Source of the DNA: an uncultured Methanosarcinales archaeon
Lineage (GTDB): Archaea > Halobacteriota > Methanosarcinia > Methanotrichales > Methanotrichaceae
Assembly (NCBI GenBank): GCA_963843555.1
Contig: CAWJKV010000002.1
Span: forward strand, 128,001 to 192,000
DNA: 64,000 bases
Direction: 5' to 3'
Both the position numbers and the translations under genes were made by a program. The notes beneath the pieces are model-generated. The model saw only the letters and a list, made by a program, of their open reading frames with translations. It made no database searches and was not told where the DNA came from. Of the stretch, positions 36,261 to 58,550 are shown piece after piece. Each line of letters starts with the position of its first letter. Position 1 is the first letter of the stretch.

Positions 36261-36276
36261 CGTTATTGAATCTACC

Positions 36277-39465: not shown

Positions 39466-39621
39466 ATGGCAGACGATAGTACTATTAAGAGCCTGATCTT
39501 GCTGGTTCTGGCAATCATAATCGTCATTGCCCTCTGGAGAACCTTGTGGTTCCTTGCTGGAGTGGCGATATTCATATTTGTGGTCTATATAGTTTACCAG
39601 TTGCTCAAGGACAAACTCTGA
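39466..39621 (+). CDS. Small membrane protein
   Basis: 51 aa, two hydrophobic segments (MADDSTIKSLILLVLAII...). Confidence 0.6.
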   Translation: MADDSTIKSLILLVLAIIIVIALWRTLWFLAGVAIFIFVVYIVYQLLKDKL

Positions 39622-39808
39622 TTCGTCCGCTTTGTAGACCCCAGGCAGATCCTAGGATTTATGCTGAGAAAGCAGTATAGATAGTGATTTGGGGCACAAA
39701 ATGCCAAGGAATACAACCTGCAGAAGGATATTCTGGCTGCCATGGCATATGCTGTCCGATTAAATATCCACTAAAATGCCGCAGAAGCCCGCAAAGGGAT
39801 CAATCATT

Positions 39809-40195: not shown

Positions 40196-40208
40196 GCAGA
40201 GGCATGGA

Positions 40209-40673: not shown

Positions 40674-40879
40674 GCAAGCTGCAATAATAGATGAAAACTA
40701 TAATCGCCCAGCAATTGAAATCCTGCGTGCAGTGCCCGCAGGCCCATGCGCACGCGCGCGCCTGCCTGCATGCGAGAGAGTCCTTTCCTGTATTCTATGA
40801 GGCCTAACTCCTATCGTCCAGTCCGTTTCCAGAGAGATTTAATTAGGTGGATGCACATATAGCTAGACGGGGTGCATGC

Positions 40880-41101
40880 ATGATAAGAGCAAAATTCGAA
40901 GACGGCAAACTTCCCATTCCTCAGAACATCGTGCAAAAAGCGGGGCTGAAAGAGGGCGATGAAGTTGAAGTGGGGCTTGAAGATGGAAAAGTGATTATCA
41001 AGCCTCTAATTGCCAAAGAAGAGTTCAAGAGGGAATTGAAAGGCTGTGTGGAGATCTCAAAGATCAATCCTCTTGAGGTAAAGAGAATATGGAAAGCCTG
41101 A
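40880..41101 (+). CDS. AbrB/MazE-fold antitoxin
   Basis: IPQNIVQKAGLKEGDEVEV...VIIKP. Confidence 0.85.
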   Translation: MIRAKFEDGKLPIPQNIVQKAGLKEGDEVEVGLEDGKVIIKPLIAKEEFKRELKGCVEISKINPLEVKRIWKA

Positions 41102-41499
41102 TATTTATAGACTCCAACATTTGGTGCTATTACTTTGATCGCTCTGCCCAAGAGCACGATCTTGTTTCAGAGAAATTAGAGCTAGCACTGGAAGGGGTTG
41201 TGGCTATAAATACCGTAGTCGAGATGGAGTTAGCCCATTACCTCATCAAGAGTTTAGGTGCTCAGGGAAAGAGGAAAATGGATCTATTCCTTTCATTCCC
41301 TATGGACGTTGTCGACTTCGACCAGCTATTGGCTATAAGATCGATTGAACTTCTTGCAAAGTTCTCACAAATTGGAATAGGCGGGTGAGATGCCACTATC
41401 TTGGCCGCTATGGAAGAGCTCGGGATCAAGAAGCTAATGACACATGATCGGGCTTTTAAACGGATAGACTCAATTGAGGTCGTAGATCCAATAGTCTGA
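41089..41499 (+). pseudogene. vapC: VapC/PIN toxin with an in-frame nonsense codon at 41386
   Basis: IFIDSNIW...GIGG*DATILAAM...MTHDRAFKRI...VDPIV*; the frame continues unbroken after the TGA. Confidence 0.8.
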
Positions 41500-41543
41500 T
41501 AGGTTTAAAAGAGAGAAAATTCGAGATTGATAAACACAAACCA

Positions 41544-42015
41544 CTAACTTATGGGCGCATAGATTATGGTGAGGATCTCCTCCGGCGGGACCTCTCTGGG
41601 ATCGTTCAGGTAAGCCTCTCTTATGGGCCCGGTCAACTTCAGTCCATTTTCCTGAAGCCAGGCAAAGAGCCTCTCGTAAACCGGCCCGCTCGCCTCGTAA
41701 GGGCCTTTGTGAATTACCTTCGCCATCTTCCCGCCGGAAAGCTCGTGGCACTTGATCTCATCCTTCTCTAGTATCCTTTCGGCAACGGGAACACAGACTT
41801 CGATGTCGGCATTGCCTGCCTCATCGGCTTTCACTGCATCTTCAACGCTCTTCTCATGCCAGAGATAAAGGGGCGGCCCGGCAATTACGGCTCCCTGGCT
41901 CATAGAATACTCAAATAGAGCAGGCAGCATCTTTGCGATCTCCTTGTAATGCCCTTTCCGTCGCATTCCTGCCACGAGCTCGGGCCTTTTCATCTACAAT
42001 TGTTATTTCGTTCAT
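41544..42015 (-). CDS. GyrI-like small-molecule-binding protein; frameshift near 41990
   Basis: HKGPYE, Y..L..W, PIREAYLNDP; the start MNEITIVDE at 42015 is in another frame. Confidence 0.85.
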
Positions 42016-42151
42016 GCCTTCACACCAATCCAGTCCTATTTTTCCATTAGTGCTGAATATGCTGAATCTCTCAGTTCCCGGCTAAACTTTTTATAAGATC
42101 CGGTCCTAATTAGCAGCAATTATTTCCCATTGTCAAAGGAGTGTTCTTTGC

Positions 42152-42547
42152 ATGCTGCATAAGGATAAAAAATCAATTAACACAAAGGTTTCGCCTTTCT
42201 GGACCTCTAAGATTAGAGCGCTTGCGGCAATGGTACTAATTGTCATGCTGGCAATGCCTGCCATGGCTCATTCGCCAGCCAGAGTGAATCTCGATTACGA
42301 CAGCCAGAATCAGACCCTGAATGTAACAACGACTCATGCCGTATCAAATCCCAGCAGCCATTATGTCATGAAGATTGTCGTCGAGAAGAACGGTAAGCAA
42401 GTCTTGACCAAAGAATACCAGAGCCAGCCCACTTCTTCCAAGTTCAGCTATGACTATCCCATCAACGCCAGCAAGGGAGATGCTCTCAAAGCGACTGCCT
42501 ACTGCAGCATTACCGGCCGCAGATCCGGCGAGATCACAGTTGCGTAG
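42152..42547 (+). CDS. Secreted hypothetical protein (HSP...THAV...HY...YC pattern)
   Basis: Signal peptide ending AMA-HSP; candidate His/Cys metal ligands. Confidence 0.65.
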   Translation: MLHKDKKSINTKVSPFWTSKIRALAAMVLIVMLAMPAMAHSPARVNLDYDSQNQTLNVTTTHAVSNPSSHYVMKIVVEKNGKQVLTKEYQSQPTSSKFSYDYPINASKGDALKATAYCSITGRRSGEITVA

Positions 42548-42707
42548 GATGCAAAGCCGGCCGCAATGCAGGCAGCAGCTGAGAATGAAACCGTTGGGAA
42601 TGCATCGCTACCTCTGGAGAAGGCCAGTTGATGTGCAGCCTCTAAAAGACGGAAAAAAGAGATAGATGAGGGCTGATAACCCTCGTTATCATCACCGCCA
42701 GCGCGGC

Positions 42708-43324
42708 TTACTGGCTCATTAAGATTTCGTAGGTATCCTTGTGCGGATTGATGAGCAGCTTTTCCGCAATCTCCCTGGCATTCATCTCGGCTTCGGGACG
42801 AAGGCTATTGAAGTACAGCTTCCAGACGGTCGCCTTCTTCACATCCACCACATTCTTGAAGCCCAGGCGGCTTCGCAGCCGCTCCCGCGTGGAGATGGCC
42901 TCGCCGTCCTCGATATGCAGGGCGACCTTCACCGGCACATAGCCTTCCTCGAACTCCAGAGTATCGATGAGAACTTTGTGGCTCTCTTTGTTCTCATTGA
43001 CCAGCTCTCTGGCAAAGCTCCTGGCCAGCTCTTCCGGGTCTCCGGAATCGACCTCAATGCTGAAGAGCCGCTCCTTCTTCACATCTTCCAGAACGTTTCC
43101 ATAGCCCAGGCGTCGCACCAGAGTGTTCTTCACAGTGGCCGCTTCCGCATCCGGGATCTTCAGCCAGACCCGCAAATTGATCATGATCATGCGGTGCGGT
43201 ATCGGAACCGAATCAGCGCCAGATCATCCCCAGCATCGACATCCTCGGCACCAGCATCGATATCCGCATCGACACCAGCATCGACTTCTGCATCAAGACT
43301 CTCACTATCCGATTCCATTAGCAT
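42708..43324 (-). CDS. purS: FGAM synthase subunit PurS (tandem domain) with a probable acidic N-terminal extension across a frameshift
   Basis: Two PurS-like halves (DAEAATVKNTL..RLG / DGEAIST...RLG...LLINP); follows purQ. Core ORF 42708..43190. Confidence 0.75.
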
Positions 43325-44117
43325 GGATTCACCTCAATGTAGCGCTTCATAGACTCGAAGACCCGTCTTCCGGGTCCAGGCTCATCCGGCCTTTGCTTTC
43401 TCGGATCGAAGGAGGGAAGCTGCCAGGCGAAGAATGACTCTCTCCGGGTGGGGCATCATTCCCAGAACATTTCCTTCCGGATTGCAGATGGCTGCGATGC
43501 TCTCAGTGCTGCCGTTCACATTCACCGGGAACTCATTTATGACCCTGCCGTTCTTATCGCAATAGCGGAAGACCACCTGTTCTTGATCGTTCAGCATTTT
43601 CAGAAGACCCGGAGATGTCGTTACCAGATTCCCCTCACCGTGGGCGATGGGGATCTTCAAGAGAGCGCCCATCTCGATCAAGAAGGAGCCGCTGCACCTC
43701 CTGGATGAGGCGTCATGTCTCAGGTTGACCCAGTCGCAGTAGTAGCCCCGGCGAACGATGTTTCCCTTGGAGACCATCACATTCTGGGCCAGGGCCATAT
43801 CCACGTTTCCCGAACCGGGCAGGAGACCGGTCTCCACCAGGATCTGGAATCCGTTGCAGATGCCGATGATGGGCTTGCCAATGGCAGCCTCCTCCTTGAG
43901 AGCCGCCAGGACCGGCTCTTTGGAGGCAATCACGCCTGCTCGCACCCGGTCTTGGTAAGAGAAGCCTCCAGGAATGACGAATCCGTCAAAGCCCGGACAG
44001 CTCGCCTGCCGGCCGGTTCCAGCGGAAGAGCTCTCCCTCCATGCCGACCGCTTTCACTGCCACCAGAGTTTCAAACTCGCAGTTCGTGCCAGGGAACTGC
44101 ATTACTGCGATCTTCAT
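43318..44117 (-). CDS. purQ: FGAM synthase subunit PurQ; frameshifts
   Basis: MKIAVMQFPGTNCE, PGGFSY, GICNGFQILVE.GLLP, PIAHGEG, GMMPHPER. Confidence 0.92.
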
Positions 44118-46450
44118 CTCATCGCCTCCACAAGACCCGTGGTCCATGCTGCTCTTGCCTCATCCAGGTCCAGGTCGGCCACAGTCTCGCCTGATCTTGA
44201 CATTTTAATCCGTCTCTTGCTTGTTACCTGGCCGATATGCATCGGCTCCAGGTTATGACTTCCTCAGAAGCTCCTCCAGTCTGGCCTCCTTTCCGGATTT
44301 TGCTTCCAGGACAAAACCAGAGGACTCAGAGAAGAGCAGTTTGTCGGTTCTCATACCGAGGTCTCCGGACGGGACACAGTCCAGATTCAGATCGAATCCG
44401 AACCTTGCAGGCCTGGTCAGTGCCATCTCCATTACTGTCGCCGCCAGGCCGCCGTTGGAGATGTCATGCGCTGCTGCGAGCAGGCCCTCATCTATGGCGT
44501 CGATGACGGCATAGATCATGCTCCTCTCCAGATCGAACCGGACAATGGGAACATTTGCTCCCATGACCCCGAATATGGTTCGGTAGTACTCCGAGCCGCC
44601 CAGCTCGTCAAATCTCGGCCCGATCAGATAGAGCCTGTCGCCGGGAGCCTTCAGCTCCATGGTGATGGCTTTGCTGAAGTCCTTCATGATGCCCACGCAG
44701 GCGACCACGGGTGACGGGTCCACTGAGCCCTGGGGCGATTCATTGTAGAAGCTCACATTGCCGGAGACTATTGGAACAGGCAGCTGCTGATCTCCATAGC
44801 CCTTCAGCCAGATCTTCTTGCAGGATTCGGCGAGGCCCTTCACGCCTTCCCGGAACTCCCAGAAGGCTTCCGGCTTCTCAGGGTTGCCGTAGTTCAGGCA
44901 GTCGGTTAGAGTTGATGGCGTGGCGCCGATGGCGGCCACATTTCTCATGGCCTCGGCCACGGCTGTAGCTCCGCCCCAGTAGGGACTGATTCTGCCGTAG
45001 AAGGGATTGGAGTCCACAGCTCAAGGCTACACCGAACTTCTCGCCCCGGACAGGCGCAATCAGTCCGGCGTCCGCCTCTCCAGGCCGGATCACGGCGTTG
45101 CCCATGACCTCGGTATCGTAGTATCTGTAGACATGCTCCCGGGAAGCGATGTTGGGGGAGTGCAGAATCTTGAGGAGGACCTCATTGTAGTCCGCAGGCT
45201 CCTCGAATTCCGGCTCGGCCTCGCTGTAGATGCGCTCCTGTTCCGGACGTTCGTAGCGGATGCCTGCTGTCAGGTGCTGTATCGGCACATCGCAGACGGT
45301 CTCGCCCTTATACTGGACTGTAAATCTGTCGCCGCGTATTTATCTTGCCCACGACGCTGGCTCTTGCGCCCTCGTAGACGTTGGGCAGGTCCCAGTCCTC
45401 GTTGTAGATCTTGAGTATCTTCTCGCGTAGCTCCGGCGGCGAGACGATCAGGAAACGCTCCTGGGTCTCGGCGATGCTCAGCACCTCGGGAGGGAAGTCG
45501 CCGGCTTTGTGCATCTCGTCCAGGTTGATCTCCATGCCAAAGCCGCCTGCAGAGCCCATCTCGGATGTGGCGCAGGTGAAGCCGCCGCCGCCCAGATCCT
45601 TGAAGCCGATCTCGATGCCCGACTCGCGGACCAGTCGGAAGAGATCGTCATTGGCCTTGAAGAGCACATTCTTCAGGAAGGGGTCCGGGATCTGCACAGC
45701 GCCGCGGTTGGTCTCCTCGTCTTCTTCTCGCAGGGCCTCAGAGGCGAAGGTGACGCCCCCGAGACCCGATGAGTCGGTCGGCTTGCCGATGAGGATCACG
45801 TCGTAGCCCCCGGCCCCTGCCAGGGGAGGCGCCCGCGAGCGGATGATCTGGTCGCGGCGGACGATGCCCAGGGAGACGACGTTCACCAGGCAGTTGTCGT
45901 CGAAGCTCTCGTTGAAGACTATGTCGCCGCCCATGTTGGGCACGCCCAGAGCATTGCCGTACTGCCAGATTCCGTCCACCACGCCCTCAGCCACCCAGCG
46001 CACCTTGCTGGCCTTGGGGCCGTAAGGGTCGCCGAAGCGCAGCGGATCGGCTGTGGCGACCACAGTCGCCCCCATGCAGTTCACGTCGCGGACAATTCCA
46101 CCGATGCCTGTCGCTGCGCCTTCGTTGGGCAGGATCTGGCTGGGGTGGTTGTGGCTCTCGTGGGATATGACGACGCACCAGTTGTCATCGATGGCAACTA
46201 TTCCGGAGTCCTCGACCGGGCCCATGACGACGTTGGGGCCGTCGGTGGGAAGGAATTCTTTCAGTGTGGCGCGGGAGCTCTTGTAGGAGCAGTGCTCCGA
46301 CCACATGGCATCATAGCAGTATAACTCGGTGAGGCTGGGGTCGCGGCCCAGAACCTCGGCAATGGAACGCGCTTCTGCGACGGACATGCCTATACCGGCA
46401 TCGCGCAGACTGGATTCTACTTCAGGATCGGCAAGACCGATTATCTTCAA
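44114..46450 (-). CDS. purL: FGAM synthase subunit PurL; about three frameshifts
   Basis: WSEHCSYKSS, ESHNHPS, GAATGIGGIVRD, DLGGGG, ETQER, CLNYGNPE, SGNVSFYN, HDISNGG, FSES. Confidence 0.95.
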
Positions 46451-47049
46451 TTCGGGTACACCTCTGCAATTATGCGCTATTCATTCGAGGAGCGTTATGA
46501 ATTTATCGATCCGAGAGGAAGGGAATGGGGGGTATGAAAAGGTGTGAAAACGACGGGAAAGTGGGCGGGGATGAGGGCGAGATAAAGGTCCCAATGGGGG
46601 AGATCTGCCAGATCGGTATACTAGAGGAGGAGAGGTTGGAGAGATTACTGCCCCTGGGATTATCGAGTACTAATCACAGGAGCAGCAAATGATGTGGATC
46701 CATGAGCTTGACTGGTCCAAGGGAAGGGCGGCAGAGCGGGTAGTTGAAATTCTTTAGTCCGAAAAGGCTTTGTAGAGAGTCACATCTATGCCCCCAAGTG
46801 GATCTGAGAATATCGTGATATCCAAGCCAAGCCAACGATGATTAATACTGCCTCAAGGTAATCCAGGGCTTACGACCCGTTTCTTACTCGCTTCCGCAAT
46901 GGACCTAATTAGTAGTCCAATATTTCCGGAAACTGGCCGACCGGCGTTCTGAATGAATTTGGGTAGCAGCGGGGAAGCGTTCTTATCGAAAAGCCGTATA
47001 TTTCTGAAATTGAAAATTATGGATATATAATAAAGATTCTCTGCCTATC

Positions 47050-48420
47050 AGCTAGCAATGTCTTAAGTATATTTATGAATGTTTACGATGGGTAAAATGT
47101 TCAGTAGCGGATCTGCATTCATGGCATGTCGAACTTAAGTTTTTTGTATTTTAATAACGGAGCTGGAATTAATCAAAGTTCCTTCTTAAGATACAATCTC
47201 CTTGGGCGATAAGTAATAATGCCTGCTTAGCCGGAGAACTATAAAGAGGTACCTCGCCACTAGTGGATGATTTTTATCCAATAGCTTTAAAATTGGAGGC
47301 AATACAACTATATAGCATGAAGAATATAACTTATTGTATGAATATATTGGTAAAAACTGGAGGAAAAACAAGAATGATCTGAAAACAGGTAGATTAAGTT
47401 TAGAAGATTGTTTTACTCTTATTGAAGTGCAATTAAATTCGAGCTATTGCAAAGTAACGATACTGGAAAAATAAATGACATTGAGGAAAATAAAATATGC
47501 ACTCACATTGATAATTGACGAACGGAATCTAATTAACCTATTTGAGAAAGAATCCTTTCAATAGAATTAGGGCCACAGATTATTATCGCCACGCTTCTGA
47601 CGAGATGCTACATGAGGCTGATTAGCGAAGATATTAATCATAGATACGAAAATAAATCTGACTTATAACATTCAATTACGATTACTTTATTGAGCATTCT
47701 ACAGAAACTAGCTTCGAAATTCAAAGTCGATCCAACCTGCGATTCGAAGGTTGTTTGGGGCTGGAGAAAAAGCTCTTGGTTATGGCATTACAATCTTGAA
47801 ATTGAAAGATCGAGACATATCAATCTTTCAAATGGAGACAAGTGGATTAAAGGAGAAGATTCCACATGAATGAGAGGTCTCCTGCCCATGGAGTTTATTA
47901 AAATTGCAGGATTGTTAAATTGGGACTTTCAAAGACTAATGCCCTTGCACATCATCCTGATTTTGCAGATGAACCGAAATTCCCATTGCCAACGGAAACT
48001 AGCCAAGCGAACAAATCTCTTCGATTTTGGGAGAGTCAAGGAATCCAATGACTATGGGCAATTTTGACTCATTAATGGACAGATATGAATTAAAAAGAGA
48101 AATCGGGCCGATTTATTATAGCACCAGAAATCCATAGAAACCTATTCTGCTTACAAGAAAAAATTATTGCACATGTTTTTGTTTGATTTATGGGAATCAG
48201 CGGAAAAAGACGACCTTCTAGGAGCAAAACTTTAAGGGTTATGAATAAGGGTGGATTCATTTCCTGAATCAGATATCCGAACAAGAGAACTATTTGAGAG
48301 GGCTTTCTGTAGGAATAATGCAGAAAGACTTAGGAGTAGCTAATTCCAGACAAATCAATTGATTTCAAAGCAAAAAAGCTATGAAACCTTAATAAATCAA
48401 TAACCCGATATGACGAGCTT
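47050..48420 (+). pseudogene. Low-GC, heavily decayed coding-like sequence of unknown family
   Basis: A-rich, codon-like composition on the + strand but only short broken ORFs. Confidence 0.3.
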
Positions 48421-48571
48421 AAAGACGTACCTCGGATCGCTGGGCATGTGGTAACCTTTCATATCCTAAAACCGCTTTGCCTCCTGATAGCCCTTAGACT
48501 GGTTCTTTGGCTGTCTTGGCATCCCTTAACATATACTCAATGGTGCAGGGACCGGGCAGATCACTGGGACC

Positions 48572-48681
48572 GCCCGCATGCTCCCGCGCCCGTGAGCGAG
48601 CGACCCTTCCGGGCTCCCGGCTCCGACCGCTGCCACCCACAGGGCTGCCGGGCCGGAGGGCGAGCGCCGCCAGGCTCCTGA
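48572..48681 (+). repeat. GC-rich hairpin repeat, copy A
   Basis: GCGCCCGTGAGCGAGCGACCCTTCCGGGCTCCCGGCTCCGACCGCTGCCACCCACAGGGCTGCCGGGCCGGAGGGCGAGCGCC; related copies at 50201, 52793 and 53647. Confidence 0.92.
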
Positions 48682-48795
48682 TGTGTTTCCATGAGATCCC
48701 GGTCAAACTGAAACCGCGGTGCTTTTCTCCAACTGAGCAACTTTTTCACGAAAAGTTATTTATGATAATAATGGGTAAAATGGGTAGGAGAATAT

Positions 48796-49059
48796 ATGCC
48801 GCTCGCAAAGATCGATGAAAGAGGAAGAGTGCAACTGCCAAGCCGTCTCCGGCAAAAGATGAAGCTGAAAGAAGGAGATGAATTCGTAGCGGAAGATCTG
48901 GGAGAGGATACGATTGTCCTCAAGAAGATCAACCTGCGGGCACTTCTGGAGGATGCAATTGTTAAAGCTAAGTCGGTAGACCTGGATAAGCTGGAAAAAG
49001 AGATCGAAGAGGAGAGCCTTCAGCTTGCCCGACAGAAGTTCAAGATATCTGCTCGATAA
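48796..49059 (+). CDS. AbrB/MazE-fold antitoxin (copy 1)
   Basis: KIDERGRVQLPSRLRQKMKLKEGD...IVLKK. Confidence 0.9.
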   Translation: MPLAKIDERGRVQLPSRLRQKMKLKEGDEFVAEDLGEDTIVLKKINLRALLEDAIVKAKSVDLDKLEKEIEEESLQLARQKFKISAR

Positions 49060-49135
49060 TACCGTCTTCATAGCCGAAGTGTTGCGCAAATGGACTAAGA
49101 GCACTGAACTGATTTATCATCTCCTTGATCGCTGT
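49035..49135 (+). pseudogene. N-terminal stub of a PIN toxin
   Basis: RYLLDNTVFIAEVLRKWTKSTELIYHLLD overlaps the AbrB end and stops at a partial hairpin repeat (49147). Confidence 0.55.
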
Positions 49136-49146
49136 CAGGAAGCGGG

Positions 49147-49170
49147 CCCACAGGGCTGCCGGGCTGGCTG
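49147..49170 (+). repeat. Partial copy of the hairpin repeat
   Basis: CCCACAGGGCTGCCGGGC, identical to the core of copies A and B. Confidence 0.75.
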
Positions 49171-49231
49171 AATGGACGCAGGCCCCAGAAAACCAATAGA
49201 CGCGCAGGAGATTCTGGCAAAGCTGTAAGTG

Positions 49232-49489
49232 CTAAATAGATGCACTCAGCTTTAGCTCGACCTGTCCAGCCCCTTGAGGCTTGGTCAGAAGTTTTCCTGC
49301 GCGAAATTCTCTCATGATCTTATCTATTTTTCTTGTAGTCTCGATTGAGAAATAGGCCTCACTGCAGCTATCGCAAACATAGGCCGGCACATCTCTGATT
49401 ACTACCATCTCTCCCTCGACTTTAGCAGTGAAATCGGTTGTGCCCTTCTTGAGCCTCCCTTTTCCGCAACTGCAGATATCGGGAATCAT
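49232..49489 (-). CDS. YgiT-type zinc finger (MqsA-like) antitoxin
   Basis: C.CG.G...VVIRDVPAYVCDSCSEAYF. Confidence 0.85.
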   Translation of the reverse strand: MIPDICSCGKGRLKKGTTDFTAKVEGEMVVIRDVPAYVCDSCSEAYFSIETTRKIDKIMREFRAGKLLTKPQGAGQVELKLSASI

Positions 49490-49575
49490 TTTGACGTTCT
49501 CTCCCTGCAATTTATCCATTTATCTTCATCCGGCAGATACACAGTAACAACTCTGAGATAATCCGGAGAAAGCAG
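49486..49575 (-). pseudogene. 3' remnant of a DUF4258-like toxin
   Basis: DYLRVVTVYLPDEDKWINCRER*; the stop overlaps the YgiT start (ATGA). Confidence 0.6.
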
Positions 49576-49616
49576 GCCTGCCGGGCAGCCGTTCCTGAGG
49601 ATGAGCAACTTGGCAT

Positions 49617-49850
49617 TTACAGGTACTCTGCAAATTCTTCGGGATCGACTTTCGCTAGCTTTAGAACGCTTTTCAATGTTCCCGGCTTAAGCTCATCATG
49701 CATCGGAATAACTGTGCCTATCTTGCCTTGCGCCGTGACTTTAGAGAGCCTGACATGGCTTCCCGACTGTCCTGAGACCATGAATCCAAAACGATTGCAC
49801 AAGACTTTGATAACGATTTCCCCGGAGATGTCCCTCTTAAGTTTCGGCAA
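49617..49850 (-). CDS. hicA: HicA toxin
   Basis: GF....QSGSHV.L...VIPMHDELKPGTLKSVLK.A. Confidence 0.9.
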   Translation of the reverse strand: MPKLKRDISGEIVIKVLCNRFGFMVSGQSGSHVRLSKVTAQGKIGTVIPMHDELKPGTLKSVLKLAKVDPEEFAEYL

Positions 49851-50049
49851 CTTCTGTTACCTCAAAGGTGGTTATGAAAGATCTCTCCTTGATCTTTAGG
49901 GGAAACTCTTCCAGATAAAGCTCGGTAGCCTCCTTGAGATTTATCGCGGCCTCCTCAATGGTCTTTCCCTGGCTTGCGGTCCCAACTTCCGGGCACTCGG
50001 CAACGTACATGTCCTCATCTCTATGGATTACTGCGGTAAGTGTGAGCAT
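49837..50049 (-). CDS. hicB: HicB antitoxin
   Basis: YVAECPEVGTASQGKTIEEA..NLKEATELYLE. Confidence 0.9.
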   Translation of the reverse strand: MLTLTAVIHRDEDMYVAECPEVGTASQGKTIEEAAINLKEATELYLEEFPLKIKERSFITTFEVTEVAET

Positions 50050-50200
50050 ACGGATTACTATTAGCTCGGCCAGCTTAAATGTTCTCCGGAAAAATGAAGA
50101 TTCAGTAAGCGAGCGAGGTCATGAACTTCAAATTGAATTCTGCACGGCTTCAACCTACGAACGCAGGCTACAGGCTACCAATGAACAATTCTATACCAAT

Positions 50201-50321
50201 GTGCCCGCACGCGTGCTCCTGCGCCCGTGAGCTACGCGGGCAGCTGCCCCGGGCTCCCGGCCCCGACCACTGCCACCCACAGGGCTGCCGGGCCGGAGGG
50301 CGAGCGCCGCCAGGCTCCTGA
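50201..50321 (+). repeat. GC-rich hairpin repeat, copy B
   Basis: 5' half resembles copy C (GGGCAGCTGCCC); 3' half is nearly identical to copy A. Confidence 0.92.
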
Positions 50322-50435
50322 TGTGTTTTCATGAGATCCCGGTCAAACTGAAACAGCGGTGCTTTTCTCTAACTGAGCAACTTTTTCACGAAAAGTTATT
50401 AATGATAATAATGGGTAAAGTGGGTAGAAGAATAT

Positions 50436-50687
50436 ATGCCGCTCGCAAAGATCGATGAAAGAGGGAGAGTGCAACTGCCAAGCCGTCTCCGGCAAAAGAT
50501 GAAGCTGAAAGAAGGAGATGAATTCGTAGCGGAAGATCTGGGAGAGGATACGATTGTCCTCAAGAAGATCAACCTGCGGGCACTTCTGGAGGATGCAATT
50601 GTTAAAGCTAAGTCGGTAGACCTGGATAAGCTGGAAAAAGAGAACGAAGAGGAGAGCAATCAGCTTGCCCGACAGAAGTTCAAGTAA
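50436..50687 (+). CDS. AbrB/MazE-fold antitoxin (copy 2, near-identical to 48796)
   Basis: Part of a direct repeat offset by 1640 bp. Confidence 0.9.
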   Translation: MPLAKIDERGRVQLPSRLRQKMKLKEGDEFVAEDLGEDTIVLKKINLRALLEDAIVKAKSVDLDKLEKENEEESNQLARQKFK

Positions 50688-50717
50688 TGAACCGGTAGAT
50701 GTAGAAGTAGGCAGACA

Positions 50718-51935
50718 CTATTCGTCATCCATATCGCGGCCAGAACCCATGAATTCGGAAAGCATTTCCACCACGTCTATAGGACGGGCATAATGTGGGA
50801 CTGCTTCATCAGCGCTCATGCCGTTTTCCATATCTTCCACCAATTGAGGGATATCTGAGGCCAAGAACGCCTTAGTTCCTTCTTTGTAGCTTCCCGCTGC
50901 CAGCACGATGATCTCTTTGGGTTTAATCGGGTAGAGATCATGCTTGAGGAATTCCGCACTATGAGTACTGATAATGAGTTGCTTTTTGCCTGCCAGGGCC
51001 GATCCCATATACATGATGAGGCAGAGGCGATGAATGGTTCCTGAGTTTAGATAAGCTTCCGGTTTTTCCAGTATCAGAAGTGGGTTATCTTCCCAATATG
51101 ACCATAAGATGGCAAAGGCTGCCAGGGTTCCATCTGAGAATTTGTCCTGCCCATATTTTGCTCTAGGCCTGCCGATATCGAAGGTGCCCTCCAAGCTAAG
51201 CGAACCTGACTTATCGGAAGTGGCGAAGCGAAGCTTGGGCATCTGGGGCATAGCGATACTGAGGATGTCATCGATGATTCTCATCCTCTTCTCCCGTTCC
51301 GGGGCAGGCATTTTTGCCGCTCTTTGCAGGATATTCCTTCCGAAGGGGTCGCCAGGAATGTCCGCGGGCGGGAATGGATCCTGGTGGCGAAAAAGCATCG
51401 GATTAAAGTTGAGATAGCTAATAGATCCTAAAAAAATGGCCAGTTCTTTGATATCGTTGTTTGTACTGATGCTGACTGTGCGGATGATTGTAGATCTGAT
51501 AGTCTCAAGATACGTCTTATCCGGATTTGTGGCATTTGAGGCATCTATTTTGTCCGGCCGGTCCAGAATAATCTCTCCGCTCTTTCTCACTCTTTCATAG
51601 GCGAGCCTTGGCGATCCGGAAGGATCGGCTGTGATGCCCAGAGAGTAGCGATAGTAGGTTCCGGATGAAACTGAATCTGCCAGGTGCACCTCCAGCTCCA
51701 CCGCTTCTTTCTTCTTAGCAGCCGAAAATTTGATCTTTTCCAGGCCGCCTCGGGTCTGCAGAGCAAAAGAGAGACCACCCTCGGGCCGGGCGATATCGGC
51801 CAGAAAGCGAAGGGCATCGAGGAGATTGGACTTGCCGATGCCGTTCGGTCCCAGGATAAATGTGCGGGGATTCAGTGGAATATCGACCGATTGGAAGTTT
51901 TTCCAGTTCTTTAAAATTAGGCGAGAGATTATCAT
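50718..51935 (-). CDS. AAA_21/SMC-like ABC ATPase (defence-associated type)
   Basis: LKNWKNF, GPNGIGKSNLLDAL, FSDGT, LLILEKPE, ISTHS. Confidence 0.85.
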   Translation of the reverse strand: MIISRLILKNWKNFQSVDIPLNPRTFILGPNGIGKSNLLDALRFLADIARPEGGLSFALQTRGGLEKIKFSAAKKKEAVELEVHLADSVSSGTYYRYSLGITADPSGSPRLAYERVRKSGEIILDRPDKIDASNATNPDKTYLETIRSTIIRTVSISTNNDIKELAIFLGSISYLNFNPMLFRHQDPFPPADIPGDPFGRNILQRAAKMPAPEREKRMRIIDDILSIAMPQMPKLRFATSDKSGSLSLEGTFDIGRPRAKYGQDKFSDGTLAAFAILWSYWEDNPLLILEKPEAYLNSGTIHRLCLIMYMGSALAGKKQLIISTHSAEFLKHDLYPIKPKEIIVLAAGSYKEGTKAFLASDIPQLVEDMENGMSADEAVPHYARPIDVVEMLSEFMGSGRDMDDE

Positions 51936-52136
51936 TCACTTCACCTTTATATTCTCAGGCTCTCCTGGCATCTCTAATCATATCTCCATCTAATCGGTTC
52001 AATGGTCGGGGAGATGAAAAATGTTTCGAGAAACTGACTCTTGTTGCACCAGAAGAAGGATGCTTTCTTTGTCCCTCGGGCCTGCTCGAACCTACAGCAT
52101 CTTGCAGGAGAGCTTTGAATCTTATGGCCATCAAGG

Positions 52137-52194
52137 CACACAGGGCTTACGGGCGGGAGGCGAGCGCCTGCTGGTCCACCCACGACGGAGCCTG
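52137..52194 (+). repeat. Degenerate 3' half of the hairpin repeat
   Basis: CACAGGGCTTACGGGCGGGAGGCGAGCGCC...CCTGA. Confidence 0.7.
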
Positions 52195-52258
52195 ATGATT
52201 CTCAAGGTTAAGATTCCGAGATAAAGTTATATCTTCTGGCGTTGTATGAACTTCTGAT

Positions 52259-52501
52259 ATGTTCTGCGAATACATCCAGGCTGCTATCTCTATGGCGGTC
52301 TATGAAGTCATAGATGATGAAGAGCCTTATTACGGCGAAGTGCCAGAATTGAAAGGCGTTTGGGCAACCGGTAAAACTCCGGAAGAGTGCCATGAGAATT
52401 TGAAGATGGCCATAGAAGATTGGATTGCGTTTAGTCTACGATTCAATTTGCCTATCCCGGCGATTGAAGGACAGATCATAAAAGCACCTGTCGAGGCCTA
52501 G
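52259..52501 (+). CDS. hicB: HicB antitoxin
   Basis: YYGEVPELKGVWATGKTPEEC.ENL..AIEDWI...PIP. Confidence 0.88.
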   Translation: MFCEYIQAAISMAVYEVIDDEEPYYGEVPELKGVWATGKTPEECHENLKMAIEDWIAFSLRFNLPIPAIEGQIIKAPVEA

Positions 52502-52504
52502 AAC

Positions 52505-52726
52505 ACGTCAAGGTTATGCCCGGTTTCGCGGAAATGAGCTGATAAGAAAGCTGCATGCCCTCGGATTCGAAGGCCCTTATACGGGCAAAGGACCAGATCC
52601 CTTGATGTGGAAAGGAACGATCAGAGTGATGATCCCAAATCCTCATCGGGCTGATATTAGCGCTGATCTGATAAAGAAGATTCTGAGATAGGCGAGATCA
52701 GCAGAGAAGAATGGCTTTCAGCTTAG
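52505..52726 (+). pseudogene. hicA: Disrupted HicA toxin
   Basis: PVSR/ELIRKLHALGFEGPY.G...IPNPHRADISADLIKKILR*...ISREEW; no start codon, with indels and a stop. Confidence 0.75.
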
Positions 52727-52792
52727 CGAAAAAAGCTTCCAGGATCTCGGCAAAACGGTTCTTCCTGCTCGCATTCTTCAAGCCCTCTTGCA

Positions 52793-52903
52793 GCCGCATG
52801 CACGTGCTCCCGGCGCTCGTGAGCTGCGTGGGCAACTGCCCAGGCTCCCGGCTCCGACCGCCGCCACCCGAAGGGCTACCGGGCCGGAGGGCGAGCGCCC
52901 CAG
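52793..52903 (+). repeat. GC-rich hairpin repeat, copy C
   Basis: GGCGCTCG...GGCTCCCGGCTCCGACCGCCGCCACCCGAAGGGCTACCGGGCCGGAGGGCGAGCGCC; the terminal AGGCTCCTGA is displaced to ~52932. Confidence 0.9.
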
Positions 52904-52950
52904 ATCTCACCAAAGTTCAAAAGAGTTACAAAGGCTCCTGAATTAGATTA

Positions 52951-53342
52951 TTATTTTGACTCCGGTATCTTGCGTCCCTTTTCCGTGCGATCAAAATCTG
53001 CGTCGAAGCTCATTATCTGCAGGCCATACTTCTGTGCAACAGCATATTGGTAGGCATCATCAAAATCCAGATGAAACTTTTTCGAGACTCCTGCAAGAGC
53101 GAGAACCTCTTCCGGATCTAATCCGATCACAGCTATTCCTGTCTTTACTATTACATCCTTCACGAAGCGGACGTAGTTTCATGTCTATTTCTCTGCAAAA
53201 GGAAAACACCAATGGAGTGAAGCGAGAAATCCGTTATGAAAAGATCTGTGGAGGGATTTGCGATAAACAGATGCTTGGCGGCCTTGCTCTTCTCCCGCTG
53301 CAGCAAGATTTCCAAAAATATGTTTGTGTCAAGGAGGTACAT
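52951..53342 (-). CDS. vapC: VapC/PIN toxin; frameshift near 53170
   Basis: MYLLDTNIFLEILL...LDFDDAYQY...MSFDADFDRT across two ORFs. Confidence 0.82.
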
Positions 53343-53548
53343 CAGGCTCCTCTCATCTTTCCAATCATGTGCTGGAGTTCCGCAGAGGAATACTGCTCTC
53401 CCAGATCCTTTAGGGCACCTTCCCAGTCAAAATCCGGCACCTTTTGCTTCTTTTTGGTTCTTTTCTCCAGCAAAAATTCGGCATAGCTCCGAACTTCTTT
53501 TTGAATGTCTGGAGGCAATTGCTCAACGAACTTAGCGAGGGTTGTCAT
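53342..53548 (-). CDS. DUF2281-like antitoxin
   Basis: LPP..QKEV..YAEFLLEK...FDWEGALKDL..YSS.ELQH. Confidence 0.82.
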   Translation of the reverse strand: MTTLAKFVEQLPPDIQKEVRSYAEFLLEKRTKKKQKVPDFDWEGALKDLGEQYSSAELQHMIGKMRGA

Positions 53549-53646
53549 TTCTCTCTTTCAGATATAAGGTGCCCAAGCTTTTAATATTTATCCTAATAGC
53601 CTGGCGGCAAGGAAGATTTCTCTCAATCGTTAACTATGTTTCTGGC

Positions 53647-53730
53647 TGCGCGCCCGTAAGCAAGCGACCCTTCCGGGCTTCCAGCCCCGGACGCCGCCAC
53701 CCGCAGGGCAGCGGGGCCGGGGGGCAAGCT
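53647..53730 (+). repeat. GC-rich hairpin repeat, copy D (more diverged)
   Basis: GCGCCCGTAAGCAAGCGACCCTTCCGGGCTTCCAGCCCCGGACGCCGCCACCCGCAGGGCAGCGGGGCCGGGGGGCAAGC. Confidence 0.85.
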
Positions 53731-54011
53731 CAAGCTTCCCCAAAGCCGGAAGAGTCCACGATCACGATGACACCAGGATTAGATTTCTATTCTAACTCTG
53801 GTGTGGAATAGCACATTGCATTTGGGCTACGAGCCTGTGAGGTTGAAACTTCGTGGGGCTGAAAAGTTACGAGCGTAACTGGCGCAGCAATCTGTTGGGT
53901 ATCAAACACTAGATGTAGTTCTCGTAATCATCCAACTCATTCAAAATCATCCTGGCGTGTCCTTCCACTTTGTGCATGTCATAGGAGTTTTAGGTGATTC
54001 GACCTTACTCC

Positions 54012-54555
54012 TCAAAGATCATATATCTGTTTTTTCCCAAATTTGGATAGCTCACTCCCGGCTTTGAATGGATTTTTCAATTTGGAAGATACTGGGATAA
54101 TTATAAGTTCCTTTGGCGTGGTTTCATTTAGTGCAGTTTGATTTAGTGCGGTTTGATTTAGTGCAGTTTGATTTAGTGCAGTTTGATTTAGTGCAGTTTG
54201 ATTTAGTGCAGTTTGATTTAGTGCAGGTCTGGTTTAGTGCAGTTTGATTTAGTGCAGTTTGATTTAGTGCAGTTTGATTTAGTGCAGTTTGATTTAGTGC
54301 AGTTTGATTTAGTGCAGTCTGATTTAGTGCAGTCTGGTTTAGTGCAGTCTGGTTTAGTGCAGTTTGATTTAGTGCAGTTTGATTTAGTGCAGTCTGGTTT
54401 AGTGCAGTTTGATTTAGTGAAGTTTGATTTAGTGCAGTCTGCTGCTCAGGAGTATATGCAGAAGCCAGTCCGACCAGGAAGATTAAGAAAAATATAGTAG
54501 CCTTAATAATATCACATCCATGTATTTGAGTTTCTATCAAGCATTGTGTAGACAA
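54012..54555 (-). CDS. Secreted protein with ~21 ALNQT repeats; 1-nt insertion near 54227, start uncertain
   Basis: Signal peptide ...VGLASA-YTPEQQT. Removing one base restores ALNQT repeats followed by ALNETTPKELII...PFKAGSELSKFGKKQIYDL*. Confidence 0.7.
54126..54440. repeat. 15-bp tandem repeat, about 21 units
   Basis: TTTAGTGCAGTTTGA / TTTAGTGCAGTCTGG units. Confidence 0.97.
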
Positions 54556-54845
54556 TCGCCGAGATATATAGTTTGCCTACAACGACAATGTGAGGTTTTG
54601 GTGCAAACCTCCTCAAACTTTATTCTTGCATGTTTTTTCGTTCCATCTGAATCGCCCGCTTGACGCTCTTTTCATAATTCTAATTCTAAAACACAGAGGC
54701 TTGATCAATAATTAGGATTTCGATCAAGGTTTGTTTGGGGAACCCATGAAAATCTAATTTGAGAGAACACTTAATTAATAATCCTCTAAAGAGACTTAAA
54801 ATTCCAATCTATCTTTGAAAAAGGGTGGGACCAACGAGTCCCGGT

Positions 54846-55829
54846 TCATATATGCATGGTATAGGTCTGACCGCAGCTGTAGGTGTTGGTCTGCGTATAT
54901 TTGGACCCATCATTGTCCACAGTTATGGTATGAGGCTGACCTCCTGTTACGGTAAAGGCGAAAGTGCCGTCAAAATGGTCTCCGCGGCGCCCGTCACCGC
55001 CAATGTAGTTGCCATCCACACTTACAGAATAGCCTCTCATGTATTCGGATGTGATGACTATCTGAGCATTGCATCCAGGCTCGGGAGTTTGCGGATAGGT
55101 TGGGTAGGTGGGTTGTGGATAGCTGCCGGAATCGTAGTATGGCGGATAATATGGGGCATAGACATAGACGTAGATGTAGTTGCTCCAGCCATTGCAGTAG
55201 TACTGAAGAGTGTGCCATCCTGCCGCATCGCCGTTAAACCACATCTTTTGCCAGCCTGGATAGCGTATAGAAGCCAGGTATTTGCTCACCAGCTTGCCAT
55301 TCGGGTACCATTCATACATATAGAGTGGCCCGGTTCCACTGACATCCAGCCACATGGGCAGCCACTGGCCGAAGTTGCACCCGGCCACAGTCGATGGCGA
55401 GTAGGGAATGTAAAATTTGTTTGGAGTTGTGACTCCAGGAGGGACTACCATGTATGTGCTCGCATAAGTGCTTGATCCAGTGGTTGACTGGTATGAAGTA
55501 GCACCTGTCACGTATGAGGGTGCAGTTGCCATGGTTGAAGGAGCACCTGTCACGTACGAGGGTGCAGTTCCCTGGTATGAAGGAGCACTTGTCCCGTATG
55601 AAGGTGCAGTTGCCAGGGTTGAAGGAGCTGCAGCCCGTGCTGATGCCGCGCTTGTGGGCATCAATGTCTGACCGCTCTCTGACGACGGCGGAGCCTGCGA
55701 GCTAGATGCCTGTGGGATTTGGATTCCTTGCGATTCAGGGCTAGGGGGTGTTGCCGGCGGAGTTGGCTGAGCCCATACAGCACCAACTAGAAACATTGCC
55801 AGCAGCGTGAGAGCCAAGATTTTTTTCAT
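54846..55829 (-). CDS. Secreted/surface protein with APSY repeats and a C-terminal PEGA-like domain
   Basis: MKKILALTLL signal peptide, TAPSY repeats, YEWYP..K, WF.GD..GWH.LQY, YSVSVDGNYIG. Confidence 0.75.
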   Translation of the reverse strand: MKKILALTLLAMFLVGAVWAQPTPPATPPSPESQGIQIPQASSSQAPPSSESGQTLMPTSAASARAAAPSTLATAPSYGTSAPSYQGTAPSYVTGAPSTMATAPSYVTGATSYQSTTGSSTYASTYMVVPPGVTTPNKFYIPYSPSTVAGCNFGQWLPMWLDVSGTGPLYMYEWYPNGKLVSKYLASIRYPGWQKMWFNGDAAGWHTLQYYCNGWSNYIYVYVYAPYYPPYYDSGSYPQPTYPTYPQTPEPGCNAQIVITSEYMRGYSVSVDGNYIGGDGRRGDHFDGTFAFTVTGGQPHTITVDNDGSKYTQTNTYSCGQTYTMHI

Positions 55830-56099
55830 ACTTTTCACCTCTAAATCATAAGAGTTTTTCATTCTCTTAAATCGAAATTTCGATGGAATCTCTTGGAATA
55901 CGGGATTCTGAGTCCCATTGTATAATTGATACTATCAAGATAAATATCTATTACTTTCCGGGAGCGCGGAGAGTCGCTGATACTCTGAACTTCAGGGAGG
56001 TTGATGGTGCTTTACAGGGATCTACTTCCCGTAAAGTACTATTGATTAAAAAGCTGAAGAATGCAGCAATTAAAAAATGCGTCCGCCTCAGCGAACAAA

Positions 56100-56184
56100 T
56101 GCGGGAGACGGGATTCGAACCCGCGAACGCCTGCGCGACAAGGCCCTCAACCTTGCTCCTTTGACCTGGCTTGGAAACCCCCGC
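56100..56184 (-). tRNA. tRNA-Leu (GAG)
   Basis: GCGGGGGTTTCCAAGCCAGGTCAAAGGAG-CAAGG-TTGAGGG-CCTTG, long variable arm, GGGTTCGAATCCC-GTCTCCCGCA. Confidence 0.95.
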
Positions 56185-56224
56185 TCGAAATATGGGTTTT
56201 GATCGGCCGGAGCCGATCCTGATT

Positions 56225-57019
56225 CTAAGATAACTCTGCTAATTTGGCGTCTAAGTCCAGAGCTCGCTTCTTTATTTCCGTTGCTGCTTCTGCCACCAGA
56301 TCTTTGGCGGCCACGCTGCCACTGCTCTCAATGGAGACCACGAAGGAATCCATGATTGGCGAGAGCGTTATGGCTGCGGCCTCACACGCTCCAACACAGA
56401 GCTTGCACAGAGAGCATTCCAGTATATTTGTAGCTTTCGCTCTGCCCTCTTCAATTACCAGAATATTGCGGGGACAGACTTCGACGCACTTTCCGCATCC
56501 GTCGCAGGCTACGCTTATCTCAAAGCTCGGCAGATTCTTGTAGCCGCATAGCGTTCCCGCCTGCCACTTGGAGTGATCTTTGCCCACTCGCTTGGTGGCA
56601 AAGCCTTCCATGACCAGCTTCTCGCCTTCTCCCAGGATGACAATAGGAATCTTGTCGAAGGCAGCCTTTACACCAGGATCGGTGAACTGAATGTCCTCAG
56701 AGTAGACCATGCCCGGCCCTTCCTTGGAGAGCATAAACTCCACCCGGCATCCCGGACAGCCTGCGCCGCCGCACTGGCACTCATCCGGCTGGGAGAACAC
56801 GCTCAGGTCCTCTGCAATCAAGGGCACCTCTCCGATCCGGAGAGAGATCTGCTCATCGAAGAGCACTGATGTGTTGTCATAGAGGCTGATCTCATCCAGG
56901 GCCAGCACCGGCACTTCACTCATGCAGGCGCGGCGAATGCCGTTTGAGAAAGCGGCTGTAACGCCGCTGAGGAGGTACCGGATGCGGTCCTCCCTCAGCT
57001 CAAGCAATTCGAACTTCAA
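56225..57019 (-). CDS. rpoD: RNA polymerase subunit D (Rpo3) with a ferredoxin-like insert
   Basis: NGIRR...EVP.LA, NTSVLFDE, IPIV.L, H.KWQ; CDGCGKCVEVCP and CSLCKLCVGAC. Confidence 0.95.
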   Translation of the reverse strand: MKFELLELREDRIRYLLSGVTAAFSNGIRRACMSEVPVLALDEISLYDNTSVLFDEQISLRIGEVPLIAEDLSVFSQPDECQCGGAGCPGCRVEFMLSKEGPGMVYSEDIQFTDPGVKAAFDKIPIVILGEGEKLVMEGFATKRVGKDHSKWQAGTLCGYKNLPSFEISVACDGCGKCVEVCPRNILVIEEGRAKATNILECSLCKLCVGACEAAAITLSPIMDSFVVSIESSGSVAAKDLVAEAATEIKKRALDLDAKLAELS

Positions 57020-57022
57020 GCT

Positions 57023-57412
57023 CTACACCCTTCGACCCCTCTTTCCTCCTTTGGGCTTCGTTCCATCGTGAGGTATGGGGGTCGCGTCTTCAATTCTGCC
57101 TATCCGGAGTCCCGCTCGCGCCAGAGCACGTATAGCTGCCTGAGCGCCCGGTCCTGGAGACCTCTGCTTGTTTCCACCGGGTGCGCGCACTTTAACGTGA
57201 ACCCCGACAATTCCCTTATCTTTCACAGCGTCAGCGACCTGCATGGCCATCTGCATGGCTGTGTAGGGAGAACTCTCGTCCCTGGCTGCCTTTACAACCA
57301 TGCCGCCCGAGATCTTGGCCAAGGTTTCGGCTCCGGTCTGGTCGGTGATGGTGATAAGCGTGTTGTTAAAGGACGAGTAAATATGGGCAATGCCCCATTT
57401 TCCTTCTGCCAT
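57023..57412 (-). CDS. rps11: 30S ribosomal protein S11
   Basis: [39 protein letters not shown]. Confidence 0.97.
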
Positions 57413-57949
57413 TTATCCTTCCACCCTGGATACTCTGGATGCCCTTTCCGGATGGCCTTCCTTGGCCATGGGGGAACCCATGTAATAATCAATGCTCATT
57501 TCCTCGCCCCTTTTCACCAGATAGCCCGGCACATCTACCCTGCGCCCGGATACCTGGACATGGCCGTGAACGATGAACTGCCTGGCCTGCTTCAAAGAAT
57601 TAGCGAGCCCCTGACGGTAGACCTGCGTCTGCAGTCTCCTCTCCAGAACGTCGTTGACCTTCATGGAGAGAATGGCGTCAAGATCTCCTTCTTCTTTCAG
57701 CATGCCCAGCCTCTTGAGACGGTTGAGAATGGCCTCCGCTTCAGGAGGAGCCTGTCCCATCGATACTGCGGCGAGCATCTTACGGCTGGACTGTCTGTAC
57801 TTCCTGAGAACAGCCTGAGCCTTCCAAAGCTCCCTCTTGTTGCGCAGTCCGTAGGCCTTGACGACCTCCACTTCTCCAGCGATACGTTCCGCCTGCCAGG
57901 GAGTGCGTGGCCTGGCATACATCTTGCGACTCTTGCCTGGATATCCCAT
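57413..57949 (-). CDS. rps4: 30S ribosomal protein S4
   Basis: YGLRNKRELW, LERRLQT, ARQFIVHGH. Confidence 0.97.
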   Translation of the reverse strand: MGYPGKSRKMYARPRTPWQAERIAGEVEVVKAYGLRNKRELWKAQAVLRKYRQSSRKMLAAVSMGQAPPEAEAILNRLKRLGMLKEEGDLDAILSMKVNDVLERRLQTQVYRQGLANSLKQARQFIVHGHVQVSGRRVDVPGYLVKRGEEMSIDYYMGSPMAKEGHPERASRVSRVEG

Positions 57950-57959
57950 TTTTTACCAC

Positions 57960-58550
57960 CTACTCCTTGGCTGCAGGTGCAGCGGCGGCTGGTAATGCCT
58001 TTCGGCTAACGCCAACAATGGCGCCTGTGCGTCCACTGGATCTGGTTCTCTGGCCCCTTACACGCAGGCCCCGCTCGTGCCTGATGCCCTTGTAGCTCCT
58101 CATCTTCTTCATGAGGTCCAGGTCTTCTCGGAGGGTCATGTTGAGGTCCATGCCCATGACATGGATGTCGGTGCCGGTTTCAATATCGCCGCGCCGGTTG
58201 ACCATCCAGGAAGGCAGAATGCTGTTGGCATCCTCTTCGACGACCTTTTTCAGCTTATCAATCTCCGAATCGGGAAGCAAGCCGAGTGTGGCAAAGGGAT
58301 CGACACCTGCTCTATCGGTAAAGAGCTTGGCGCATCTGCGGCCCACACCTTTAATGCCCGTCAGGGCCATATGGACCTGCTTCTTTCCAGCCAGGTCTGT
58401 ATTCAGAATGCGAACTATATGCCGGAGATCTTCATCAACGGTCTTCTTGGTAGGCTTCTCATCAACCTTTTTAGGCTTATCTTTTGCTACCTTATCTTTT
58501 GCTACTTTCTCTTTAGCATCTTTCTCTTTTACATCTTTCTCTTTTGCCAA
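57960..58550 (-). CDS. rps13: 30S ribosomal protein S13 with a Lys/Glu/Asp-rich N-terminal extension
   Basis: IVRI.NTDL.G, IKGVGRR, SYKGIRHERGL.VRGQRTRS; TTG start after GGAGG. Confidence 0.96.
   Translation of the reverse strand: MAKEKDVKEKDAKEKVAKDKVAKDKPKKVDEKPTKKTVDEDLRHIVRILNTDLAGKKQVHMALTGIKGVGRRCAKLFTDRAGVDPFATLGLLPDSEIDKLKKVVEEDANSILPSWMVNRRGDIETGTDIHVMGMDLNMTLREDLDLMKKMRSYKGIRHERGLRVRGQRTRSSGRTGAIVGVSRKALPAAAAPAAKE

Follow-up and report, generated by a model that had tools for sequence, protein, structure and literature searches.

Co-oriented 94-base repeats delimit an apparently undescribed array of toxin-antitoxin cassettes in the archaeal genus Methanothrix

We analyzed a stretch of 64,000 nucleotides (hereafter the window) from the genome of an uncultured Methanosarcinales archaeon of the family Methanotrichaceae (GenBank assembly GCA_963843555.1, contig CAWJKV010000002.1, positions 128,001 to 192,000; G000:C2:128001-192000, where G000 is our label of the source genome). 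Divergently from purL, the window carries an array of toxin-antitoxin and defence genes whose blocks are separated by short GC-rich repeats. An earlier note on this DNA had described four near-full and two partial repeat copies, all intergenic and on the same strand, which our analysis confirms with a core of about 94 nt instead of 110 bp. The four near-full copies lie on the plus strand, have a GC content of 76–81% and share pairwise identities of 66–86%. Searching the 2.68-Mb genome with a profile of 94 positions built from relatives returned just these four copies and one partial copy at C2:105061, while the reversed genome gave no match. The two partial copies of the window score weakly (E ~0.003–0.005, as short targets), and both sit exactly where the close relative G374 has full repeats heading the same cassettes. 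The gene content assigned to the blocks in the earlier note was confirmed by Pfam and tblastn. The locus comprises the following features:

44253–46450, minus strand: purL, which serves as conserved anchor; it runs divergently from the array and is split into three open reading frames in this assembly
46460–48500, no strand: AT-rich (39% GC) variable island from purL to the array head, with content that differs among relatives
48530–48571, minus strand: remnant of an alpha/beta-hydrolase gene at the array head, abutting the first repeat
48576–48668, plus strand: repeat copy A, about 94 nt, 80% GC
48796–49141, plus strand: truncated cassette T12 with an AbrB/MazE antitoxin (48796–49059) and the first 39 codons of a PIN toxin (49025–49141)
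49147–49167, plus strand: partial repeat, right part only, a deletion remnant that opens cassette T4
49232–49563, minus strand: remnant of cassette T4 with a YgiT/MqsA-type antitoxin (49232–49519) and the last 25 codons of a DUF4258 toxin
49617–50049, minus strand: cassette T14 with hicB (49837–50049) and hicA (49617–49850), both frames open
about 50211–50308, plus strand: repeat copy B, near-full
50436–50687, plus strand: second copy of the AbrB antitoxin gene (duplication)
50718–51935, minus strand: AAA_21 ABC-type ATPase, best PADLOC match HEC-01A (E 7e-88), a candidate defence component
52121–52167, plus strand: partial repeat, right half, which opens cassette T5
52259–52727, plus strand: cassette T5 with a UPF0150/HicB antitoxin (52259–52501) and a hicA gene frameshifted in this assembly
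about 52802–52899, plus strand: repeat copy C, near-full
52951–53548, minus strand: cassette T3 with a DUF2281 antitoxin (53342–53548) and a PIN/VapC toxin (52951–53342) split in this assembly
53640–53731, plus strand: repeat copy D, the last in the array and the most diverged

The mosaic nature of the copies, likewise noticed before, is clearest for A and B: over the right 60 nt of copy B and 377 nt beyond it, the sequence matches its counterpart at copy A with 97% identity, and this identity begins in the middle of the repeat (48609/50249) and extends through the duplicated AbrB block. Several toxin genes of the window are truncated or frameshifted. The large truncations are deletions; the frameshifts may be assembly errors, since purL (44253–46450) is also split in the same assembly, pointing to indel errors that may apply to the frameshifted toxins and integrases of this genome alike. 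No partner gene accompanies the ATPase within its block (50718–51935).

In comparative terms, the repeat is restricted to a single genus. By blast, 27 genomes among the 392 of the class proved to carry it, all of them from one genus, and a sequence-only model detected it in 30 of 105 genomes of the family, namely in 30/59 Methanothrix genomes and in none of the 46 others. Within the genus its distribution is patchy: carriers range from 74 to 89% in RpoD identity, and there was no match in the nearest genome by this measure nor in two of the next three (G376, G005 and G031, each 98–99% complete). One pattern search matched 34 metagenome stretches; in viral contigs there were 0 exact matches to one 26-nt pattern. 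Among 38 stretches from a scan of genome contigs, 15 had bacterial titles; none of these exceeded a profile score of 7 bits, and we take them as chance matches. We found no prior description of the repeat or the array in the literature, where coverage of subscription journals was poor, and consider it an apparently undescribed, genus-restricted cassette array.

As to the arrangement of the array, 61 loci were scanned, 60 of which had matches (209 in total); nine were left out as duplicates or near-duplicates, eight by the matching spacing of their repeat matches and L077 on presumption. None of the 48 multi-copy loci mixed strands. Of the 125 segments between repeats, 103 belong to 16 types that recur and 22 are singletons; 0/636 segment matches were inverted. 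By content, 49 segments carry toxin-antitoxin genes, 35 are gene-less, 16 encode an acylphosphatase-like protein, three an unknown 295-aa protein and 22 are other, with type T15 placed in the class that we take its family to represent. The species draw on a shared pool, whose cassettes match end to end between species and stand in changing order: 67 of 112 labelled junctions are distinct, and the vapC-DUF2281 cassette alone has seven kinds of predecessor and seven of successor. G374, with a purL region 95% identical to that of the window, holds 13 repeats and a different cassette order. Tandem duplications are found as well: in G374 they comprise four cassettes, in G016 cassette T10 and in the window the AbrB block. 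Fusions and partial deletions affect many cassettes. Cassette edges beside the repeat are ragged, the outer 20 nt being 46–88% identical in most types compared with about 90% inside. Broken or partial copies account for 32/78 toxins and 11/85 antitoxins; this excess is only suggestive of toxin decay, as toxins are longer and some assemblies contain indel errors.

Solo copies of the repeat exist at other loci, most of them adjoining sequence of the cassette pool in the usual orientation. The array is usually found next to purL; in 15 loci the distance from the first repeat to the start of this divergent gene is 0.4–6.4 kb, and an unrelated AT-rich island mostly lies in between. The hydrolase remnant is cut at nearly the same point and abuts the repeat in at least 22 other loci, while its left breakpoints are many and different. 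Further array heads are located at tRNA sites or close to them, and there an integrase is found in G026, a fragment of one in G369 and a partial tRNA in G029. In sequencing data from eight runs, available as contigs only and with word shares of at most 0.17, several contig joints fall at repeats (e.g. 50298 to 52159 and 50168 to 48575) and fit other cassette orders.

To locate the exchange, we compared variation in the flanks and the interior of 141 repeats with the neighbouring cassettes and the host genome. Each flank of the repeat varies with the cassette on its own side, with z values of 2–5 upstream (without T1) and 5–11 downstream. The interior is unlinked to the upstream cassette (z -0.8 to 1.4 without T1) and barely linked to the downstream one (z ≤ 2.4); it varies instead with the host genome (z up to 4.9). 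One internal variant, for instance, was seen in 12 repeats that together have six different cassette labels upstream and six downstream. Recent switches fall at different points, namely mid-repeat in copies A and B of the window and at the right end in repeats 3 and 7 of L070. A single fixed crossover point was seen neither in the linkage scan nor among these switches, although later gene conversion could hide one. Repeats beside shared cassettes are 77–79% identical, compared with 92–93% for those cassettes, and repeat identity is higher within genomes (82%) than between them (75%). Because the interior is unlinked to both neighbours, follows the genome and diverges more than the cassettes it joins, homology-directed exchange fits these data better than a fixed cut site. 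At four-fold sites, cassette genes are less diverged than purL/purQ in 63 of 70 (non-independent) host pairs (0.29 vs 0.39), a sequence pattern suggestive of mainly vertical inheritance combined with exchange between lineages.

The earlier note had described the repeat as a nested bulged hairpin and considered a hairpin recombination site or a structured RNA; neither is borne out. Single copies folded as DNA or RNA on either strand gave z values of -1.9 to +1.25 relative to shuffles, and 60 of the 103 full copies had mean z values of +0.24 (top strand) and +0.01 (bottom strand). RNAalifold predicted no pair for 44 copies, and the top covarying columns of the alignment are not compensatory. The two ends of the repeat are its best conserved parts and form imperfect inverted arms (88% of cells pairable vs 36–62% when slid), with arm-to-arm covariation at the level of shuffles (187/500 as high). 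RYYYAAC and GTTRRRY are the motifs at the ends of attC, the recombination site of integrons. They occur in only two and one of the 103 full copies with 20-nt flanks, in agreement with the absence of attC ends noted before. A search of window positions 38000–58000 against Rfam returned a tRNA and one sub-threshold match outside the array and none within it. No terminator-like site falls within a repeat, and the direction of the repeat is independent of that of the cargo genes. Two RNA libraries cover the region of the array, though solely in the form of contigs, by which transcription is not demonstrated. A role of the repeat as a G-quadruplex trigger was dropped, as the canonical four-G-run motif is present in only 23/103 copies.

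None of the enzyme families that we searched for tracks the arrays. The integron integrase IntI (TIGR02249) was above the cut-off in 0/59 genomes, 30 of them at least 90% complete, though no control genome passed either. Six-frame profile searches of 64 loci (787 kb around arrays) gave two tyrosine-recombinase matches, both beside tRNA sites, and a search for PF00589 tyrosine recombinases found none linked to arrays. The integrase family of the G026 type occurs in 12/30 repeat-bearing and 10/29 other genomes, serine resolvases (PF00239) in 5/30 and 3/29, and Y1 transposases (PF01797) in 24/30 and 20/29, none of the latter beside an array. Genes of IS110, IS256, IS21, IS66 and TnpB are sporadic in or near arrays. 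The linkage to a tyrosine recombinase or HUH/RAYT (repetitive extragenic palindrome-associated tyrosine) transposase envisaged earlier was thus not found among the families tested. Of four outcomes that the earlier note had named as speaking against its proposal, the lack of covariation was found and the other three were not: the copies are clustered and linked to the cassette pool rather than scattered regardless of toxin-antitoxin genes, gene order varies among genomes, and the repeat was not seen elsewhere as the end of an insertion sequence, nor do its indels come in threes as in a gene fragment. Its core proposal of an integron-like array that organises toxin-antitoxin cassettes without attC is therefore supported.

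Taken together, the locus is a chromosomal array of small cassettes, most of them toxin-antitoxin operons, in which homology-directed recombination at any point of the 94-base repeat, not at one cut site, probably leads to the duplication, loss and reordering of cassettes. Exchange between direct repeats would move whole repeat-to-repeat units and could not invert them. It might proceed by unequal crossover or gene conversion between chromosome copies, by pop-out and re-entry, or by uptake of DNA from a relative. With homology-directed exchange, cassettes would be deleted, duplicated and reordered but not inverted, repeats would become alike within genomes, and the crossover would not be fixed. 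New cassettes may be born when a deletion or illegitimate fusion places a gene beside a repeat, as the many different left breakpoints of the hydrolase remnant suggest, and toxin-antitoxin cassettes, by resisting their own deletion, could hold the array together. As candidate enzymes we would name RadA-type recombination first and a low-specificity tRNA-type integrase of passing elements second. There is precedent for short homologies: 40 bp suffice in Pyrococcus furiosus (PMC5099854), and for the integrase IntpTN3 any homologous stretch of about 104 bp will do (PMC5495485).

Several points weigh against this interpretation. The main difficulty is that about 94 bp at 75–85% identity is short for homologous recombination, which in Thermococcus kodakarensis was detected only from 500 bp (PMC5495485). 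The repeats could have been homogenised as a secondary effect of a site-specific system, their divergence may be overstated through sequencing errors in GC-rich DNA (compare the split purL), and the presence of solo units of repeat plus cassette at new loci calls for some other means of movement. No excised circle was demonstrated in the eight runs, and one of 13 later loci (L136) holds an inverted repeat pair. Furthermore, cassette T1 carries a variant left arm in 27/28 cases, which a fixed cut to its right would equally give, the right boundary of the repeat is sharp, and its conserved ends form inverted arms as protein-binding sites would. These last three features suit the main rival, in which the repeat is the target of a site-specific recombinase acting in trans or now lost, that is, an integron analogue with a non-attC site whose crossover is blurred by gene conversion. 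The end-to-end matches of cassettes between species and some array heads at tRNA integration sites with an integrase or fragment (G026, G029, G369) also speak for it. However, no single crossover point is seen, no tested family (IntI, G026-type integrase, serine resolvase, Y1 transposase) tracks the arrays, cassette edges are ragged beside the repeat, and the cassette pool is small and old instead of open. We therefore regard this rival as rather unlikely.

Two further explanations fare considerably worse. The repeat could be a non-autonomous mobile element, such as a MITE (miniature transposable element with inverted repeats) or a repetitive extragenic palindrome (REP), that inserted repeatedly into a toxin-antitoxin hot spot with the cassettes as bystanders. 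Its short, GC-rich, intergenic and lineage-restricted nature, the solo copies at other loci and the one ancestral junction inside the hydrolase gene would be expected of such an element. Yet with four full copies and one partial copy in the genome the repeat is not dispersed, nor is it linked to Y1 transposases, so that the REP-like element considered in the earlier note does not fit. Orientation is uniform in the 48 multi-copy loci, and solo copies lie mostly beside cassette-pool sequence in the usual orientation. The same repeat-bounded units are found in new orders, a pattern not to be had from independent insertions. This explanation is largely refuted and very improbable. About equally remote is the idea that each toxin-antitoxin operon carries the repeat as a structured RNA, terminator or insulator, with shuffling as a side effect. 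The intergenic position, the very high GC content and the RNA contigs over the array are compatible with such a role, whereas the lack of a consensus fold, of covariation and of an Rfam match in the array, fold z values around zero, a repeat direction independent of cargo direction, the missing terminator-like sites and the rarity of the four-G-run motif argue against it.

Beyond the array itself, we made several observations on the surrounding sequence. A GC stretch at 40725–40775, previously thought to be related to the repeat, had no profile match at E ≤ 10 and only a self match in blastn, and was discarded. Nucleotidyltransferase-HepT and AbrB-PIN genes with duplicated genes form a separate cluster at 34650–41400 without a repeat copy; not all toxin-antitoxin genes of the window are therefore in arrays. 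The gap between purL and the array (46460–48500 in the window, and its orthologues) is a hot spot for unrelated AT-rich islands, including McrBC in G027 and, judged by eye, apparently methyltransferase and HNH genes in G365. Just past copy D, the non-coding sequence at 53790–53930 has two diverged copies elsewhere in the genome, a high contig depth in one RNA run and no Rfam match. At 54112–54467, a 15-bp tandem repeat encodes (LNQTA)n, each unit with an N-glycosylation sequon, in a small protein with a signal-peptide-like start. Outside the window, a second, decayed locus (C2:104700-106300), 3 kb from tRNA-Leu(CAA), contains a vapC/DUF2281 remnant, the left half of a repeat and an alpha/beta-hydrolase gene; the repeat-hydrolase order recurs in L026, and the locus is possibly the ancestral site. 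L136 (5388–6668) is the only locus seen with two opposite repeat copies, 1.1 kb apart and away from the main arrays.

Among the cassettes, long imperfect palindromes with CACAGAG/CTCTGTG units (seen in the gene-less segments of L027) make up a second family within the gene-less types T1, T7, T8 and T10; unlike the 94-bp repeat, they are dispersed over the genome in both orientations. The commonest single-gene cassette (L033:14378-14923, L028:15005-15667) codes for an acylphosphatase-like domain and, after it, a coiled-coil tail in which the number of short repeats varies; it is intact in 13 of 14 scored copies. Cassette T11 (L059:2159-3046) encodes the 295-aa archaeal protein, intact in 7/8 copies and without a match in Pfam, NCBIfam (run on a homologue) or PADLOC. 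Look-ups of the T11 and T2 proteins in the Atlas named nothing new.

Placing the array among known systems, REPs and bacterial interspersed mosaic elements with their RAYT transposases as well as MITEs are short, GC-rich intergenic repeats, as is the Methanothrix repeat; the latter differs in that its palindromic character does not exceed chance, it is not scattered, its orientation is strict and no Y1 transposase is linked to it. In layout the array works like that of an integron, but it is not an integron. Like sedentary chromosomal integrons and clusters of attC sites lacking an integrase (CALINs), the archaeal integrons of PMC9668308 among them, it has tandem cassettes at a fixed chromosomal site with one co-oriented, lineage-specific repeat, shuffled order, and toxin-antitoxin as well as gene-less cassettes; CALINs, too, have no integrase next to the array. 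In contrast to archaeal integrons with their canonical attC folds and IntI (PMC9668308), the Methanothrix array has no attC cores, no single-strand fold, no IntI (59 genomes) and no fixed crossover seen, and its pool is small (about 16 types) with many cassettes fused or partly deleted. In its manner of working, though not by membership, the array also resembles the intergenic mosaic elements of Neisseria (NIMEs) with their dRS3 repeats, where a conserved GC-rich repeat alternates with variable spacers in a mosaic array at a syntenic site and is proposed to promote exchange via homologous recombination or a specific recombinase (PMC1797815). In Methanothrix, too, a mosaic array stands at a syntenic site, its repeats homogenise within a genome, and their number and order vary. 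The differences are that dRS3, a palindrome of 20 bp, exists in hundreds of copies whose spacers are short and non-coding, the variable genes lying next to the array (PMC1797815), while the Methanothrix repeat is 94 bp long, directional and confined to one or few loci, with whole operons as spacers. Finally, IntpTN3 of Thermococcus is an archaeal tRNA-targeting tyrosine recombinase for which any homology of some 100 bp, which is the length of our repeat, is sufficient (PMC5495485), but it is not tied to cassette arrays. For Methanothrix it is a candidate mechanism only.

Methanothrix is a main converter of acetate to methane in sediments and digesters. Tentatively, and as a doubtful rather than a favoured proposal, the arrays may form a genus-wide platform of gene exchange, in which an unfolded non-attC site is worked in trans by a homology-scanning recombinase, either an IntpTN3-like integrase of the tRNA type or another enzyme. 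If true, such a platform would let these species trade and reorder toxin-antitoxin and defence cassettes and would be an independently evolved archaeal counterpart of the integron. The arrays represent integron-like shuffling without IntI or an attC fold, and would for this reason be missed by searches based on attC and IntI. They offer a compact natural test of whether about 95 bp of imperfect homology suffices for archaeal recombination to run a cassette system, and of whether an array of this kind can be stabilised by toxin-antitoxin pairs alone. In addition, the repeat serves as an easy marker of the variable hot spot of defence genes next to purL.

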